A stretch of DNA of 7,225 nt, from NCBI GenBank assembly GCA_000004985.1, contig GG739152.1; one strand, written 5' to 3'. The translations under genes and the position numbers were made by a program. The DNA is from Naegleria gruberi (Eukaryota). Under the pieces are notes generated by a model. That model searched no databases and was not told the DNA's origin. It was given only the letters and a program-made list of their open reading frames with translations. Shown here piece after piece: positions 879-7,225 of the stretch; the stretch's first letter is position 1; each line of letters starts with the position of its first letter.

Positions 879-3800
879 NNNNNNNNNNNNNNNNNNNNNN
901 NNNNNNNNNNNNNNNNNNNNNNNNNNNNNNNNNNNNNNNNNNNNNNNNNNNNNNNNNNNNNNNNNNNNNNNNNNNNNNNNNNNNNNNNNNNNNNNNNNNN
1001 NNNNNNNNNNNNNNNNNNNNNNNNNNNNNNNNNNNNNNNNNNNNNNNNNNNNNNNNNNNNNNNNNNNNNNNNNNNNNNNNNNNNNNNNNNNNNNNNNNNN
1101 NNNNNNNNNNNNNNNNNNNNNNNNNNNNNNNNNNNNNNNNNNNNNNNNNNNNNNNNNNNNNNNNNNNNNNNNNNNNNNNNNNNNNNNNNNNNNNNNNNNN
1201 NNNNNNNNNNNNNNNNNNNNNNNNNNNNNNNNNNNNNNNNNNNNNNNNNNNNNNNNNNNNNNNNNNNNNNNNNNNNNNNNNNNNNNNNNNNNNNNNNNNN
1301 NNNNNNNNNNNNNNNNNNNNNNNNNNNNNNNNNNNNNNNNNNNNNNNNNNNNNNNNNNNNNNNNNNNNNNNNNNNNNNNNNNNNNNNNNNNNNNNNNNNN
1401 NNNNNNNNNNNNNNNNNNNNNNNNNNNNNNNNNNNNNNNNNNNNNNNNNNNNNNNNNNNNNNNNNNNNNNNNNNNNNNNNNNNNNNNNNNNNNNNNNNNN
1501 NNNNNNNNNNNNNNNNNNNNNNNNNNNNNNNNNNNNNNNNNNNNNNNNNNNNNNNNNNNNNNNNNNNNNNNNNNNNNNNNNNNNNNNNNNNNNNNNNNNN
1601 NNNNNNNNNNNNNNNNNNNNNNNNNNNNNNNNNNNNNNNNNNNNNNNNNNNNNNNNNNNNNNNNNNNNNNNNNNNNNNNNNNNNNNNNNNNNNNNNNNNN
1701 NNNNNNNNNNNNNNNNNNNNNNNNNNNNNNNNNNNNNNNNNNNNNNNNNNNNNNNNNNNNNNNNNNNNNNNNNNNNNNNNNNNNNNNNNNNNNNNNNNNN
1801 NNNNNNNNNNNNNNNNNNNNNNNNNNNNNNNNNNNNNNNNNNNNNNNNNNNNNNNNNNNNNNNNNNNNNNNNNNNNNNNNNNNNNNNNNNNNNNNNNNNN
1901 NNNNNNNNNNNNNNNNNNNNNNNNNNNNNNNNNNNNNNNNNNNNNNNNNNNNNNNNNNNNNNNNNNNNNNNNNNNNNNNNNNNNNNNNNNNNNNNNNNNN
2001 NNNNNNNNNNNNNNNNNNNNNNNNNNNNNNNNNNNNNNNNNNNNNNNNNNNNNNNNNNNNNNNNNNNNNNNNNNNNNNNNNNNNNNNNNNNNNNNNNNNN
2101 NNNNNNNNNNNNNNNNNNNNNNNNNNNNNNNNNNNNNNNNNNNNNNNNNNNNNNNNNNNNNNNNNNNNNNNNNNNNNNNNNNNNNNNNNNNNNNNNNNNN
2201 NNNNNNNNNNNNNNNNNNNNNNNNNNNNNNNNNNNNNNNNNNNNNNNNNNNNNNNNNNNNNNNNNNNNNNNNNNNNNNNNNNNNNNNNNNNNNNNNNNNN
2301 NNNNNNNNNNNNNNNNNNNNNNNNNNNNNNNNNNNNNNNNNNNNNNNNNNNNNNNNNNNNNNNNNNNNNNNNNNNNNNNNNNNNNNNNNNNNNNNNNNNN
2401 NNNNNNNNNNNNNNNNNNNNNNNNNNNNNNNNNNNNNNNNNNNNNNNNNNNNNNNNNNNNNNNNNNNNNNNNNNNNNNNNNNNNNNNNNNNNNNNNNNNN
2501 NNNNNNNNNNNNNNNNNNNNNNNNNNNNNNNNNNNNNNNNNNNNNNNNNNNNNNNNNNNNNNNNNNNNNNNNNNNNNNNNNNNNNNNNNNNNNNNNNNNN
2601 NNNNNNNNNNNNNNNNNNNNNNNNNNNNNNNNNNNNNNNNNNNNNNNNNNNNNNNNNNNNNNNNNNNNNNNNNNNNNNNNNNNNNNNNNNNNNNNNNNNN
2701 NNNNNNNNNNNNNNNNNNNNNNNNNNNNNNNNNNNNNNNNNNNNNNNNNNNNNNNNNNNNNNNNNNNNNNNNNNNNNNNNNNNNNNNNNNNNNNNNNNNN
2801 NNNNNNNNNNNNNNNNNNNNNNNNNNNNNNNNNNNNNNNNNNNNNNNNNNNNNNNNNNNNNNNNNNNNNNNNNNNNNNNNNNNNNNNNNNNNNNNNNNNN
2901 NNNNNNNNNNNNNNNNNNNNNNNNNNNNNNNNNNNNNNNNNNNNNNNNNNNNNNNNNNNNNNNNNNNNNNNNNNNNNNNNNNNNNNNNNNNNNNNNNNNN
3001 NNNNNNNNNNNNNNNNNNNNNNNNNNNNNNNNNNNNNNNNNNNNNNNNNNNNNNNNNNNNNNNNNNNNNNNNNNNNNNNNNNNNNNNNNNNNNNNNNNNN
3101 NNNNNNNNNNNNNNNNNNNNNNNNNNNNNNNNNNNNNNNNNNNNNNNNNNNNNNNNNNNNNNNNNNNNNNNNNNNNNNNNNNNNNNNNNNNNNNNNNNNN
3201 NNNNNNNNNNNNNNNNNNNNNNNNNNNNNNNNNNNNNNNNNNNNNNNNNNNNNNNNNNNNNNNNNNNNNNNNNNNNNNNNNNNNNNNNNNNNNNNNNNNN
3301 NNNNNNNNNNNNNNNNNNNNNNNNNNNNNNNNNNNNNNNNNNNNNNNNNNNNNNNNNNNNNNNNNNNNNNNNNNNNNNNNNNNNNNNNNNNNNNNNNNNN
3401 NNNNNNNNNNNNNNNNNNNNNNNNNNNNNNNNNNNNNNNNNNNNNNNNNNNNNNNNNNNNNNNNNNNNNNNNNNNNNNNNNNNNNNNNNNNNNNNNNNNN
3501 NNNNNNNNNNNNNNNNNNNNNNNNNNNNNNNNNNNNNNNNNNNNNNNNNNNNNNNNNNNNNNNNNNNNNNNNNNNNNNNNNNNNNNNNNNNNNNNNNNNN
3601 NNNNNNNNNNNNNNNNNNNNNNNNNNNNNNNNNNNNNNNNNNNNNNNNNNNNNNNNNNNNNNNNNNNNNNNNNNNNNNNNNNNNNNNNNNNNNNNNNNNN
3701 NNNNNNNNNNNNNNNNNNNNNNNNNNNNNNNNNNNNNNNNNNNNNNNNNNNNNNNNNNNNNNNNNNNNNNNNNNNNNNNNNNNNNNNNNNNNNNNNNNNN

Positions 3801-6220
3801 NNNNNNNNNNNNNNNNNNNNNNNNNNNNNNNNNNNNNNNNNNNNNNNNNNNNNNNNNNNNNNNNNNNNNNNNNNNNNNNNNNNNNNNNNNNNNNNNNNNN
3901 NNNNNNNNNNNNNNNNNNNNNNNNNNNNNNNNNNNNNNNNNNNNNNNNNNNNNNNNNNNNNNNNNNNNNNNNNNNNNNNNNNNNNNNNNNNNNNNNNNNN
4001 NNNNNNNNNNNNNNNNNNNNNNNNNNNNNNNNNNNNNNNNNNNNNNNNNNNNNNNNNNNNNNNNNNNNNNNNNNNNNNNNNNNNNNNNNNNNNNNNNNNN
4101 NNNNNNNNNNNNNNNNNNNNNNNNNNNNNNNNNNNNNNNNNNNNNNNNNNNNNNNNNNNNNNNNNNNNNNNNNNNNNNNNNNNNNNNNNNNNNNNNNNNN
4201 NNNNNNNNNNNNNNNNNNNNNNNNNNNNNNNNNNNNNNNNNNNNNNNNNNNNNNNNNNNNNNNNNNNNNNNNNNNNNNNNNNNNNNNNNNNNNNNNNNNN
4301 NNNNNNNNNNNNNNNNNNNNNNNNNNNNNNNNNNNNNNNNNNNNNNNNNNNNNNNNNNNNNNNNNNNNNNNNNNNNNNNNNNNNNNNNNNNNNNNNNNNN
4401 NNNNNNNNNNNNNNNNNNNNNNNNNNNNNNNNNNNNNNNNNNNNNNNNNNNNNNNNNNNNNNNNNNNNNNNNNNNNNNNNNNNNNNNNNNNNNNNNNNNN
4501 NNNNNNNNNNNNNNNNNNNNNNNNNNNNNNNNNNNNNNNNNNNNNNNNNNNNNNNNNNNNNNNNNNNNNNNNNNNNNNNNNNNNNNNNNNNNNNNNNNNN
4601 NNNNNNNNNNNNNNNNNNNNNNNNNNNNNNNNNNNNNNNNNNNNNNNNNNNNNNNNNNNNNNNNNNNNNNNNNNNNNNNNNNNNNNNNNNNNNNNNNNNN
4701 NNNNNNNNNNNNNNNNNNNNNNNNNNNNNNNNNNNNNNNNNNNNNNNNNNNNNNNNNNNNNNNNNNNNNNNNNNNNNNNNNNNNNNNNNNNNNNNNNNNN
4801 NNNNNNNNNNNNNNNNNNNNNNNNNNNNNNNNNNNNNNNNNNNNNNNNNNNNNNNNNNNNNNNNNNNNNNNNNNNNNNNNNNNNNNNNNNNNNNNNNNNN
4901 NNNNNNNNNNNNNNNNNNNNNNNNNNNNNNNNNNNNNNNNNNNNNNNNNNNNNNNNNNNNNNNNNNNNNNNNNNNNNNNNNNNNNNNNNNNNNNNNNNNN
5001 NNNNNNNNNNNNNNNNNNNNNNNNNNNNNNNNNNNNNNNNNNNNNNNNNNNNNNNNNNNNNNNNNNNNNNNNNNNNNNNNNNNNNNNNNNNNNNNNNNNN
5101 NNNNNNNNNNNNNNNNNNNNNNNNNNNNNNNNNNNNNNNNNNNNNNNNNNNNNNNNNNNNNNNNNNNNNNNNNNNNNNNNNNNNNNNNNNNNNNNNNNNN
5201 NNNNNNNNNNNNNNNNNNNNNNNNNNNNNNNNNNNNNNNNNNNNNNNNNNNNNNNNNNNNNNNNNNNNNNNNNNNNNNNNNNNNNNNNNNNNNNNNNNNN
5301 NNNNNNNNNNNNNNNNNNNNNNNNNNNNNNNNNNNNNNNNNNNNNNNNNNNNNNNNNNNNNNNNNNNNNNNNNNNNNNNNNNNNNNNNNNNNNNNNNNNN
5401 NNNNNNNNNNNNNNNNNNNNNNNNNNNNNNNNNNNNNNNNNNNNNNNNNNNNNNNNNNNNNNNNNNNNNNNNNNNNNNNNNNNNNNNNNNNNNNNNNNNN
5501 NNNNNNNNNNNNNNNNNNNNNNNNNNNNNNNNNNNNNNNNNNNNNNNNNNNNNNNNNNNNNNNNNNNNNNNNNNNNNNNNNNNNNNNNNNNNNNNNNNNN
5601 NNNNNNNNNNNNNNNNNNNNNNNNNNNNNNNNNNNNNNNNNNNNNNNNNNNNNNNNNNNNNNNNNNNNNNNNNNNNNNNNNNNNNNNNNNNNNNNNNNNN
5701 NNNNNNNNNNNNNNNNNNNNNNNNNNNNNNNNNNNNNNNNNNNNNNNNNNNNNNNNNNNNNNNNNNNNNNNNNNNNNNNNNNNNNNNNNNNNNNNNNNNN
5801 NNNNNNNNNNNNNNNNNNNNNNNNNNNNNNNNNNNNNNNNNNNNNNNNNNNNNNNNNNNNNNNNNNNNNNNNNNNNNNNNNNNNNNNNNNNNNNNNNNNN
5901 NNNNNNNNNNNNNNNNNNNNNNNNNNNNNNNNNNNNNNNNNNNNNNNNNNNNNNNNNNNNNNNNNNNNNNNNNNNNNNNNNNNNNNNNNNNNNNNNNNNN
6001 NNNNNNNNNNNNNNNNNNNNNNNNNNNNNNNNNNNNNNNNNNNNNNNNNNNNNNNNNNNNNNNNNNNNNNNNNNNNNNNNNNNNNNNNNNNNNNNNNNNN
6101 NNNNNNNNNNNNNNNNNNNNNNNNNNNNNNNNNNNNNNNNNNNNNNNNNNNNNNNNNNNNNNNNNNNNNNNNNNNNNNNNNNNNNNNNNNNNNNNNNNNN
6201 NNNNNNNNNNNNNNNNNNNN
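879..6220. other. Masked or unsequenced block of 5,342 consecutive N. Its content is unknown.
   Basis: I counted directly: the first n is at 879 and the last at 6220. Gene B enters it from the left and gene C exon 4 enters it from the right, so at least the 3' portions of two convergent genes lie inside. Confidence 0.99.
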
Positions 6221-6586
6221 ATCTGCACCATCTGATTCCATATCAAGCAAATTAATTGCGTCTGCTGAAGGTTGTGTTGCTCTTGTGTCAGGTTTTTTGA
6301 TCCAATCTTTAACAAGTGTTAAAAAAACAACTTCATCTTCTGCAACATAGCTCTGCAATGAAGAGAATTGACCATTGTTGGCTCTGACATGTTCTCTTGT
6401 TGGTGAAGAGGTAGAAGGTTGAATATCTGTTGCTTGAATTGAGGATGGAACCCCTTCTATATTAGAAACTTCTACATTGGAATTCTTCTTTCTTTTTGGC
6501 TTCTCTTTTTTCTTTAATTCTATTAGACTCTTTCTTTTAAAAGAACTCCACAGATTGCTGAATATCTTACTGACATAACAATAGCT
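6221..6586 (-). CDS. Gene C exon 4, visible part (122 codons, phase 0). It continues leftward into the N block. It encodes a stretch resembling a nuclear localisation signal (KRKSLIELKKKEKPKRKKN), an S/T/P/Q-rich low-complexity region and an acidic patch.
   Basis: The minus-strand frame is open from the acceptor TAG at 6589..6587 down to 6221. Translation: SYCYVSKIFSNLWSSFKRKSLIELKKKEKPKRKKNSNVEVSNIEGVPSSIQATDIQPSTSSPTREHVRANNGQFSSLQSYVAEDEVVFLTLVKDWIKKPDTRATQPSADAINLLDMESDGAD... The right-hand ends of ORF-track entries 802..6315 and 860..6358 overlap this real coding stretch. Confidence 0.7.
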
Positions 6587-6641
6587 CTAATTAATTGTTG
6601 GAAAATAATTAATAAATAATTTAAGGATAAACTTCACTTAC
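6587..6641 (-). other. Gene C intron 3 (55 nt, phase 0).
   Basis: On the minus strand it starts with GTAAGT (6641..6636) and ends with aattaaTTAG (AG at 6588..6587). A CCAAC branch-like motif lies 11 nt upstream of the acceptor. Removing it joins exon 3 (ending ...CAA AGT ATT) in frame to the long open frame of exon 4. The alternative ttcAG acceptor at 6559..6558 was tested and gives an immediate in-frame TAA. Confidence 0.55.
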
Positions 6642-6819
6642 AATACTTTGCACGTATTTATATGTATCCGTTGACAATCCATTAACATGTTTTCTGAACA
6701 ATGTTTCACCAAAAGTTAATTGCAGACAATCTTTACATGAACTCATGGCAGTATCATTTTGGGGAATCCCTTTTCGCTTACAGTAAATTCGAATACATTG
6801 CATAACTTCTCTTTTTAGT
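6642..6819 (-). CDS. Gene C exon 3 (178 nt). It encodes a Cys-rich segment with a C-x4-C-x14-C-x2-C arrangement.
   Basis: This is the inner part of ORF-track entry 6621..6848. That entry starts at a TTG (not an ATG), and its last 7 codons (VSEVYP*) are read from the GTAAGT intron. The first exon nucleotide (A at 6819) completes the codon GC|A carried over from exon 2. Exon reading: (A)LKREVMQCIRIYCKRKGIPQNDTAMSSCKDCLQLTFGETLFRKHVNGLSTDTYKYVQSI. Confidence 0.6.
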
Positions 6820-6861
6820 CTATATAAAATCAAATAAATAACTAACAATTTGCTTACTTAC
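6820..6861 (-). other. Gene C intron 2 (42 nt, phase 2). A second donor (GTAAGC) lies 4 nt downstream, giving a tandem donor GTAAGTAAGC.
   Basis: Minus strand: gtaagtaagcaaattgttagttatttatttgattttatatag. The donor GTAAGT is at 6861..6856 and the acceptor tatAG at 6821..6820. The length is a multiple of 3, and removal bypasses the in-frame TAA at 6860..6858. The result joins ...CAA CGA GC to A CTA AAA..., giving ...TQRALKREV.... Confidence 0.5.
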
Positions 6862-6931
6862 GCTCGTTGAGTATCCTTCCATCCCACTGCAGCCTTGGGA
6901 TAACAGTCAGCCAACTTTTCATATGTGGCTT
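6862..6931 (-). CDS. Gene C exon 2 (70 nt), read in the frame that gives (E)ATYEKLADCYPKAAVGWKDTQR(A).
   Basis: This frame is open from 6983 to the intron-2 donor and is the same frame as exon 3. The acceptor is gtttacCAG with AG at 6933..6932. The phase-1 start matches the phase-1 end of exon 1 (G|AA gives Glu). The alternative frame (KPHMKSWLTVIPRLQWDGRILNERK) is also open across this segment, so the frame choice rests on splice phase and a weak codon-usage preference. Confidence 0.45.
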
Positions 6932-7097
6932 CTGGTAAACATGTTATGGTTAATTTAGTCTTCTTCTTTGTTATTAGAATAATTTATGTTGAATAAATGG
7001 TGCTAAACTACTTACTTTTACTGATGGTGATGATGCTGAAATGATGTAAAATTGGCAGTTGATGGAAAAGTTACAAGGTTGATGTTGAATTACTTAC
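6932..7097 (-). other. Gene C intron 1 (166 nt, phase 1). It contains the candidate 20-nt cassette exon at 7035..7016.
   Basis: Donor GTAAGT at 7097..7092 immediately after ATGCCAG. The acceptor is ...aTTAACcATAACatgtttacCAG, which carries TTAAC and ATAAC branch-like motifs 18 and 12 nt upstream of the AG. Confidence 0.4.
7016..7035 (-). other. Candidate 20-nt cassette micro-exon (CATCATCACCATCAGTAAAA) inside gene C intron 1.
   Basis: On the minus strand it is flanked by a consensus acceptor cATTTCAG (AG at 7037..7036) and a perfect donor GTAAGT (7015..7010). Including it would split intron 1 into introns of 62 and 84 nt and shift the downstream frame by +2. See the findings entry for the frame consequences. 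Confidence 0.25.
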
Positions 7098-7104
7098 CTG
7101 GCAT
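7098..7104 (-). CDS. Gene C exon 1: a 7-nt micro first exon (ATG CCA G) carrying the start codon.
   Basis: The minus strand reads ...cacaataaATGCCAG|GTAAGTaattc. The ATG sits in an A-rich context and is followed after 4 nt by a perfect GTAAGT donor. Phase 1 matches the exon 2 frame, predicting an N-terminus MPEATYEKLADCYPKAAVGWKDTQRALKREVMQC.... There are four ACTTAC (minus-strand GTAAGT) sites in the 1,005 readable nt on this side against about 0.25 expected by chance. I cannot exclude a 5' exon further upstream. Confidence 0.3.
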
Positions 7105-7175
7105 TTATTGTGTTTTTTATTGTGTTTTTTTTGATTCGAATTTTCAGTCGAAAGCCAGTTTTTAGACGAAAAAAA
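7105..7175. promoter_or_regulatory. 71-bp head-to-head intergenic region between the start codons of gene C (minus) and gene D (plus). Presumed compact bidirectional promoter and leader region.
   Basis: The minus-strand ATG is at 7104..7102 and the plus-strand ATG at 7176-7178. The interval is T-rich on the plus strand and A-rich on the minus strand, and it contains the tandem 12-mer listed separately. Confidence 0.35.
7107..7132. repeat. Perfect tandem direct repeat ATTGTGTTTTTT x2. The second copy runs into a T8 tract.
   Basis: Read directly: 7107-7118 attgtgtttttt and 7119-7130 attgtgtttttt, followed by tt at 7131-7132. On the minus strand it reads AAAAAACACAAT x2, immediately upstream of the gene C ATG. 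Confidence 0.8.
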
Positions 7176-7225
7176 ATGTCTTTACAAAATAACAAGGAAC
7201 AAGGTATCTATTTGAAAGACGCTGG
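7176..7225 (+). CDS. Gene D: 5' end of a plus-strand CDS. 16 codons are visible before it runs off the right window edge. Product unknown.
   Basis: ATG at 7176-7178 after an A6 run (gacgaaaaaaATGtct). It reads MSLQNNKEQGIYLKDAG with no stop before the window ends. It shares the ATGTCT start with gene B. Support is only start context and an open frame over 50 nt. Confidence 0.35.
   Translation, partial: MSLQNNKEQGIYLKDA

Follow-up and report, generated by a model that had tools for sequence, protein, structure and literature searches.

A five-exon model of the Naegleria gruberi gene NAEGRDRAFT_76782, with a 7-nt coding start and micro-exon architecture shared with Willaertia magna

Can a handful of splice-donor motifs in raw DNA mark a eukaryotic gene, and how should its exons be joined? 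The question is raised by contig GG739152.1 of Naegleria gruberi, a stretch of 7,225 nucleotides (nt) that was analysed whole and is called the window here. From the letters of the window, an earlier note had proposed an intron-rich gene on the minus strand, gene C, which would begin with a start exon of only 7 nt. The best explanation of this locus, and in our view a highly probable one, is that gene C is the five-exon gene NAEGRDRAFT_76782, with a lineage-restricted product of 241 amino acids (aa) for which a weak SWIB-like guess can be offered. Gene C would be an ordinary protein-coding gene of the minus strand from which four short U2-type GT-AG introns are removed. Translation would start at ATG 7104, with 7 coding nt ahead of intron 1, and the spliced mRNA would yield a protein of 241 aa that occurs in the Naegleria/Willaertia lineage alone. 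The coordinates of gene C and of the other features of the window are collected in Table 1.

The gene was first signaled by its donors. All four of the perfect GTAAGT motifs reported for the minus strand are present by direct motif count (7097-7092, 7015-7010, 6861-6856 and 6641-6636), and the window contains this hexamer on the minus strand only. Apart from these four sites, both strands of the 1,883 real bases are free of GTAAGT and of GTATGT. The chance expectation had been put at 0.25; recomputed for the 1,005 nt of the right block, minus strand only, it is 0.33, but the cluster is still non-random, with a Poisson P(>=4) of ~4e-4. Four copies of GTAAGT were reached in 2 of 200 dinucleotide shuffles of the whole window. 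Conventional open reading frames (ORFs) say little about the locus, as the note had observed: the sole real ORF of the ORF track is a TTG-started frame of 75 aa at 6621-6848 on the minus strand, and the rest are artefacts of the N run.

We could reproduce the open spliced frame of 207 aa that the note had assembled from exons 7104-7098, 6931-6862, 6819-6642 and 6586-6221, with introns of 166, 42 and 55 nt. A protein database search, as the note had recommended, matched this product to the N. gruberi entry NAEGRDRAFT_79192 with 99% of residues identical. The matching entry (P0001, EFC46272.1) is a hypothetical protein of N. gruberi NEG-M. The gene on the present scaffold is NAEGRDRAFT_76782 (P0002, EFC35563.1), whose protein translates exactly from 7104-7098, 7035-7016, 6965-6862 and 6819 onward. 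A third entry, NAEGRDRAFT_80659 (P0003, EFC41441.1; 241 aa), shares a 90%-identity cluster with the other two, and the three models, which lie on three scaffolds and would be alleles or paralogous copies, are ~99% identical over their shared parts. Both NAEGRDRAFT_76782 and NAEGRDRAFT_80659 begin MPASSPSVK/KKTKLTITCLPEATYEK (the slash marks an exon junction), which supports a spliced minus-strand gene that starts at ATG 7104 with 7 coding nt before intron 1. The N-terminus, however, is MPASSPSVKKKTKLTITCLPEATYEK and not the MPEATYEK of the four-exon model. The gene, including its 7-nt coding start, is thus already known from the GenBank annotation of N. gruberi NEG-M, and it had been "missed by ORF finding" only in the sense of a prokaryote-style ORF finder. 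Literature searches returned nothing on the locus tags, on the W. magna assembly used below or on a Naegleria donor consensus.

The NAEGRDRAFT models agree with gene C in the 7-nt start, in the 20 nt of exon 2 and in the last two introns, and each departs from it in its own way. NAEGRDRAFT_80659 lacks a Ser at the intron-4 junction and carries one Asp-to-Ala change. NAEGRDRAFT_79192 begins at an internal Met in exon 4 (ATG 6803-6801) and splices intron 4. The model deposited for this scaffold, NAEGRDRAFT_76782, retains intron 4 and is only 109 aa long, ending in VQSIVSEVYP at a TAA inside the intron. The 42-nt intron (6861-6820) and the 55-nt intron (6641-6587) of the earlier note are found in the GenBank models, and their positions and phases are kept in W. 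magna. At the 3' end, the note's model is better than the one deposited for this scaffold, which keeps the last intron.

Table 1. Features of the 7,225-nt window and of gene C
Feature	Position	Strand	Content	Basis or remark
Exon 1, coding part	7098..7104	-	ATGCCAG: Met, Pro, first base of Ala	Start of NAEGRDRAFT_76782 and NAEGRDRAFT_80659
Intron 1	7036..7097	-	62 nt, GTAAGT...TTTCAG, phase 1	TTTCAG is the first AG after the donor
Exon 2	7016..7035	-	20-nt internal micro-exon CATCATCACCATCAGTAAAA, encodes (A)SSPSVK	NAEGRDRAFT_76782 translates exactly with it
Intron 2	6966..7015	-	50 nt, GTAAGT...ACAAAG, phase 0	Uses donor 7015
Exon 3	6862..6965	-	104 nt, encodes KKTKLTITCLPEATYEKLADCYPKAAVGWKDTQR(A)	Earlier model began 34 nt late, at 6931
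Intron 3	6820..6861	-	42 nt, GTAAGT...TATAG, phase 2	phmmer alignment to the W. magna protein crosses the junction
Exon 4	6642..6819	-	178 nt, conserved-domain core LKREVMQCIRIYCKRKGIPQND...YKYVQSI	Overlaps the 75-aa TTG-started ORF
Intron 4	6587..6641	-	55 nt, GTAAGT...AATTAG, phase 0	Spliced in NAEGRDRAFT_79192 (VQSI/SYCYV)
Exon 5, visible part	6221..6586	-	366 nt, then gap	Conserved-domain end, Lys-rich stretch, Ser/Thr-rich region, acidic tail
Spacer between divergent ATGs 7104 (-) and 7176 (+)	7105..7175	strandless	71 nt	Read from sequence
Divergent gene	from 7176	+	ATG 7176, MSLQNNKEQGIYLKDAG...	Read from sequence
ORF off the left edge	475 to 1	-	158 aa (MILRQSRTQILFPRVSFSVLIILIVVMIIII...)	ATG 475
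Gene start running into the gap	ATG 838	+	MSQQVIDLNKQHF	Read from sequence
N run	879..6220	strandless	5,342 nt	Fills 74% of the window
Complete small scaffold	7,225 bp		Real bases 1-878 and 6221-7225, 1,883 in all	N. gruberi NEG-M assembly

The two models of gene C differ in what lies between the 7-nt start and exon 3. The note had stated that each donor, joined to the nearest downstream YAG, keeps one frame open, but its model has three introns for four donors, and the donor at 7015 lies idle within the 166-nt intron. The nearest YAG past the donor at 7097 is the TTTCAG ending at 7036, which gives an intron of 62 nt, and not the CCAG ending at 6932. What had been taken for one intron of 166 nt spans two introns (62 and 50 nt), the 20-nt micro-exon that separates them and, at its end, 34 nt that belong to the beginning of exon 3. 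In the five-exon model all four GTAAGT donors are employed, the introns are uniform in length (62, 50, 42 and 55 nt), and introns 1 and 2 each end at the first AG that lies 20 nt or more beyond the donor. All introns run from GT to AG, and no stop interrupts the 675 coding nt that can be read between ATG 7104 and the gap. The GC content is 0.36 in exons and 0.24 in introns. The start itself is distinctive, in that the motif ATG-N4-GTAWGT has a single occurrence in the window, at the start of gene C (expected 0.003 per 300 nt). The phrase "7-nt start exon" holds for the coding part; the transcribed exon 1 also has a 5' untranslated region (UTR).

The note had further seen a fission-yeast-like fungal style in the short introns, TAG acceptors and CTAAC-like branch motifs. 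The branch motifs fit yTnAy loosely at best, and in introns of 24% GC such matches carry no information. Gene C does share with the compact eukaryotic genomes of this comparison AT-rich introns of 42-62 nt, GTAAGT donors, AG acceptors and micro-exons, but fission yeast is a fungus, and the host of gene C is the heterolobosean N. gruberi (Discoba). The only homologues are from N. gruberi (99-100% identical) and W. magna. A nematode origin had been dismissed, and correctly so. The N. gruberi genome has a mean of 1.7 exons per gene, a mean intron of 203 bp and a GC content of 33% (PMC8296547). Four short introns within 520 nt put gene C well above this average, and the 32% GC of the window agrees with the genome value.

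The 3' end of gene C, comprising its last 16 codons and the TAA stop, lies in the gap. The full coding lengths are 7, 20, 104, 178 and 414 nt plus the stop, with exon 5 visible for only 366 nt. NAEGRDRAFT_79192 and NAEGRDRAFT_80659 run 16 residues past the gap edge (GAD/LYSDNGQSDSEEAQQL, the slash marking the edge). A 510-nt environmental contig (L002; European Nucleotide Archive ERZ929261, run ERR1078381) aligns to window positions 6398-6221 with 0 mismatches and two indels, and supplies the 16 missing codons, the TAA stop and 3' flank. Because this contig and the two other N. gruberi copies supply the missing end, the full product of the present copy would be 241 aa. One of the differences concerns a CAA (Gln) codon between 6332 and 6331 (minus strand, exon 5), which is absent only here (AEDEVVFL, against AEDEQVVFL in NAEGRDRAFT_79192 and NAEGRDRAFT_80659) and is also present in the environmental contig. 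That contig also has a 2-nt deletion that shifts its frame (MLKIGSKNLT/RATQPS, the slash marking the shift), which is either an assembly error or the mark of a decayed copy in an environmental Naegleria.

An independent view of the gene comes from Willaertia, the sister genus of Naegleria. When 1.8 billion representative proteins were searched with HMMER, a sole credible relative emerged besides the N. gruberi cluster, the W. magna hypothetical protein ABK040_003205 (P0005), with a phmmer E-value of 9e-9 and 31-36% identity. Scans of JGI metagenomes with protein-alignment patterns and with a degenerate DNA pattern for CIRIYCKRKGIPQ yielded no relatives. The W. magna locus (L001) has a GC content of 6-25%, and its gene begins ATGTCTT/GTATGT, a 7-nt coding start like that of gene C. 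The motif ATG-N4-GTAWGT occurs once in the 20.7-kb locus, both strands counted, at the start of the orthologue (expected 0.001 per 300 nt). The orthologue has four introns of 42-60 nt, compared with 42-62 nt in gene C; their donors are GTATGT and three GTAAGT, and their phases of 1, 0, 2 and 0 are identical to those of gene C. Intron 1 (54 nt, phase 1) lies in the same place. Intron 3 (44 nt, phase 2) interrupts the same codon, 8 codons before a conserved Cys, and intron 4 (42 nt, phase 0) follows the same codon, after VKKI in W. magna and VQSI in gene C. Introns 1, 3 and 4 are thus in identical positions in the two species, and the phmmer alignment between the proteins crosses the junctions of introns 3 and 4. 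Exon 2 of W. magna is 41 nt long and Ser-rich, and occupies the same position and phase as the 20-nt exon of gene C. The W. magna exons measure 7, 41, 17 (or 101), 175 and 213 nt.

Similarity extends beyond the parts that are annotated as coding in W. magna. When the register is fixed by intron 3, the exon-3 peptide significantly resembles the in-frame W. magna translation, even in the W. magna part that is outside the annotated coding sequence (P ~1e-3 over 19 aa, 3e-4 over 25 aa). The C-terminal tails are likewise similar at a fixed register (P ~5e-5). These conserved W. magna segments carry two in-frame stops. A TAG (L001 10244-10246) stands in place of a conserved exon-3 Trp codon and is taken by the annotated model as a 3' splice site, which gives a 144-nt intron and reduces exon 3 to 17 nt. 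A TAA (10735-10737) lies in frame just before the conserved acidic tail, and the annotated model stops there. These stops may reflect decay of the gene, a faulty assembly or a splice site that arose by mutation. A non-standard genetic code was rejected as their cause, since neighboring genes carry standard-code ORFs of 341 and 358 aa in DNA of ~24% GC.

The sequences show the identity with annotated proteins, the exon/intron geometry and its conservation in W. magna; the junctions of the actual transcript are inferred. The comparison demonstrates, at the level of gene structure, that the 7-nt start and the micro-exon architecture are common to Naegleria gene C and Willaertia. Because the start motif, the intron phases and the exon-3 peptide are conserved in W. 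magna and homology crosses the junctions, the evidence argues that the upstream exons are probably coding and that the start is not at the internal ATG 6803.

We considered four other readings of the locus. The present copy could be a non-functional duplicate or an alternative-haplotype fragment on a small unplaced scaffold, which we regard as unlikely. Three near-identical models do lie on three scaffolds, the CAA codon is missing only here, and the scaffold is tiny and mostly gap; decay also occurs in the gene C family, as seen in the 2-nt frameshifting deletion of the environmental contig and the two in-frame stops of W. magna. However, the visible coding sequence is open throughout its 675 nt, its splice sites are intact, and it differs from the other copies by nothing but a 3-nt indel that keeps the frame. 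Allelic status, moreover, would not make this copy any less a gene.

It is considerably harder to maintain that the four-exon model is the main mRNA, with the 7-nt exon joined to 6931 by the 166-nt intron. Its frame is open, the CCAG acceptor is good, and the W. magna equivalent of exon 3 contains a CTAG compatible with phase 1, so that the form could exist as a minor exon-skipping isoform. Yet the model leaves a perfect GTAAGT idle in an intron, which undercuts its own statistical argument, and it bypasses the first AG (the TTTCAG ending at 7036) and nine more AGs before 6932. At 166 nt, its first intron would be an outlier, since introns measure 42-62 nt in gene C and 42-60 nt in W. magna, and the exon 2 that the model skips is present in two GenBank models and in the W. 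magna orthologue.

A start at the internal Met (MQCIRIY), with the upstream exons forming a 5' UTR or lying outside the gene, likewise seems very improbable to us. It is the start used by one of the three GenBank models (NAEGRDRAFT_79192), and it sidesteps the tight 71-nt spacing to the neighboring gene. W. magna, however, has Leu here, and a start at its next Met would leave the protein without its most conserved motif. Homology also continues upstream of the internal Met and across intron 3 (the phmmer alignment runs from query residue 21), the exon-3 peptide is significantly conserved, as is the 7-nt start motif, and frame and phase are kept through three upstream exons in both species. The deposited 109-aa model, with intron 4 retained, merits almost no credence as the true product: it translates exactly from the window, and intron retention is common in non-animal eukaryotes (PMC6142364), but intron 4 is spliced in the other two copies, an intron interrupts the W. 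magna gene at the same point and in the same phase, ahead of a conserved exon (SYCYVSKIFSN in gene C, RYSYCSKLFTS in W. magna), and the truncation most likely arose because the true stop was lost in the N gap and the predictor needed an in-frame stop.

The five-exon reading leaves the function of the product to be read from its sequence. The protein has an N-terminal conserved domain of ~100 aa that is predicted to be helical, followed by a Lys-rich linker resembling a nuclear localization signal, a Ser/Thr-rich segment and an acidic tail. The linker contains KKKEKPKRKK, and its basic character is kept in W. magna; the tail motif W...S-x-DAI-x-L-x-D is also conserved, the W. magna protein having both the Lys-rich linker and the acidic DAI-x-L-x-D tail. 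The product may be nuclear. An hmmscan of Pfam-A at E <= 10 assigned no family to the earlier model, to the full-length model, to the W. magna protein or to a repeat unit of the protein P0006 (see below).

A lead emerged when a family profile built from the two species, Naegleria and Willaertia, was searched against PDB sequences. The best match was the Arabidopsis SWIB-domain chain 1v32 (At5g08430), with E = 0.022 for the full-length profile, and the same chain was the top match of a domain-only profile (E = 0.0079). We checked 1v32 as a SWIB domain through its match to the SWIB regions of UAF30 and SMARCD. The alignment, KREVMQCIRIYCKRKGIPQ...SCKDCLQLTFG in gene C with RTEVVRRLWAYIKAHNLQNP...LCDEKLELILG in 1v32, is plausible. 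With SWIB/MDM2 domains (PF02201; 1v32, yeast UAF30, BAF60/SMARCD) gene C would share a [RK]-x-E-V-x-x-x-[IL]-x-x-Y-[IC]-K helix, an [IL]-[QP] loop and a C-[DK]-x-x-L-x-L-x-F-G motif. Small proteins that consist of a SWIB domain occur in plants and fungi, and are likewise small with a basic linker. On this basis, the product may be a small nuclear adaptor associated with chromatin or transcription, with an N-terminal domain that would be a very divergent SWIB/MDM2-like interaction module. A divergent SWIB-like nuclear adaptor is a tentative working hypothesis, not a finding, and one that we think more apt to fail than to hold.

Other matches were set aside. Casein kinase 2 chains in the PDB (E ~0.02-0.2) align to the low-complexity Lys-rich linker and are spurious; their similar E-value shows the noise level, and the SWIB statistics are marginal. 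The gene C family matches just one of several SWIB chains in the PDB, so that membership is not established, and a protein search seeded with the UAF30 SWIB segment gave 2 matches only. P0006 was rejected as a homologue despite a phmmer E-value of 8e-5, the score being summed over six copies of one short motif. This protein of 1,979 aa (L003; GCA_000142945.1, which we take to be Phytophthora infestans, DS028121.1, 4341578-4359866) consists of about ten tandem repeats of ~195 aa. Each repeat has the motif GLRDAKRALRSRLWECISVY, resembling GWKDTQRALKREVMQCIRIY of gene C, and we judged this to be a chance match inflated by repetition.

Several observations weigh against the five-exon reading or against the SWIB lead that goes with it. 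The junctions are all drawn from gene models and a single orthologue, and the GenBank models are predictions that conflict: NAEGRDRAFT_79192 starts at the internal Met, NAEGRDRAFT_76782 keeps intron 4 and NAEGRDRAFT_80659 is one Ser short. AAG acceptors are less favored than YAG, and the acceptor of intron 2 is an AAG, with two further in-frame AGs after it, at 6963 and 6960; the CCAG at 6932 is in frame too if exon 2 is skipped. Divergent ATGs only 71 nt apart leave a tight space for a promoter and two 5' UTRs. The annotated proteomes of N. fowleri and N. lovaniensis yielded no homologue. The copy in W. magna, with an in-frame TAG and TAA within conserved segments, may be decaying. As for the domain, Pfam SWIB (PF02201) went unmatched even at E <= 10, and hence fell short of its gathering score. 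In hhalign, the comparison with an alignment of three SWIB sequences gave P = 0.013 and a probability of 3.3%. AlphaFold2 models of the N. gruberi and W. magna proteins had a mean pLDDT (predicted local distance difference test) of 37 and 51.5, respectively, and a Foldseek search of the PDB returned no match below E = 3.9.

The surroundings of gene C are compact. Directly upstream of its start, the spacer to the divergent plus-strand gene holds a tandem AAAAAACACAAT (two copies, minus strand), and a TTTTCAG lies 28 nt upstream of the neighbor's ATG 7176. The spacer may serve as a promoter. At the opposite end of the window, the 158-aa ORF has a hydrophobic N-terminal anchor and no Pfam match, and its product looks like a type II membrane protein. 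All three neighboring start codons have the common context AAAAAAATG. Both real blocks have a GC content of ~32%. The N run between them is probably a sized scaffold gap; it cuts off gene C as well as the plus-strand gene beginning at 838, nearly all of which is hidden. Scans of the window for Rfam families and tRNAs detected neither. Synteny was not found between the neighbors in the window and the W. magna locus.

The W. magna locus holds another gene of this kind. On its plus strand, at ~15110-15460, three GTAAGT motifs cluster in a stretch that lacks a called gene. Joined by eye, the exons there encode a partial small GTPase of Rho-like type (Pfam Ras family, E = 2e-8) and include an 11-nt micro-exon, CCGGTGCTGAT (15301-15311). 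The product reads WDTGADEY at the canonical Rho motif WDTAGQEDY. Because this uncalled Ras-family gene has an 11-nt exon, micro-exons in this lineage are not confined to gene C.

What the locus teaches is partly practical. Spliced eukaryotic genes can be spotted in raw sequence by clustered extended donor motifs, and skipping a micro-exon is a typical mistake when splicing by eye. For curation, where the deposited model is truncated by the gap and the three copies are discordant, the five-exon structure supported by W. magna leads to a single, consistent protein of 241 aa. An annotation of the gene already exists, and the result matters little for biology at large. We consider it doubtful, though conceivable, that a divergent SWIB/MDM2 domain defines a Naegleria/Willaertia family of nuclear adaptors, in which the micro-exons would have been fixed since the genera split and a TGG-to-TAG change in W. 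magna would have cost the conserved Trp and created a splice site that skips most of exon 3. If the SWIB lead is true, gene C would encode a lineage-specific chromatin factor in a deep-branching eukaryote, a modest result.

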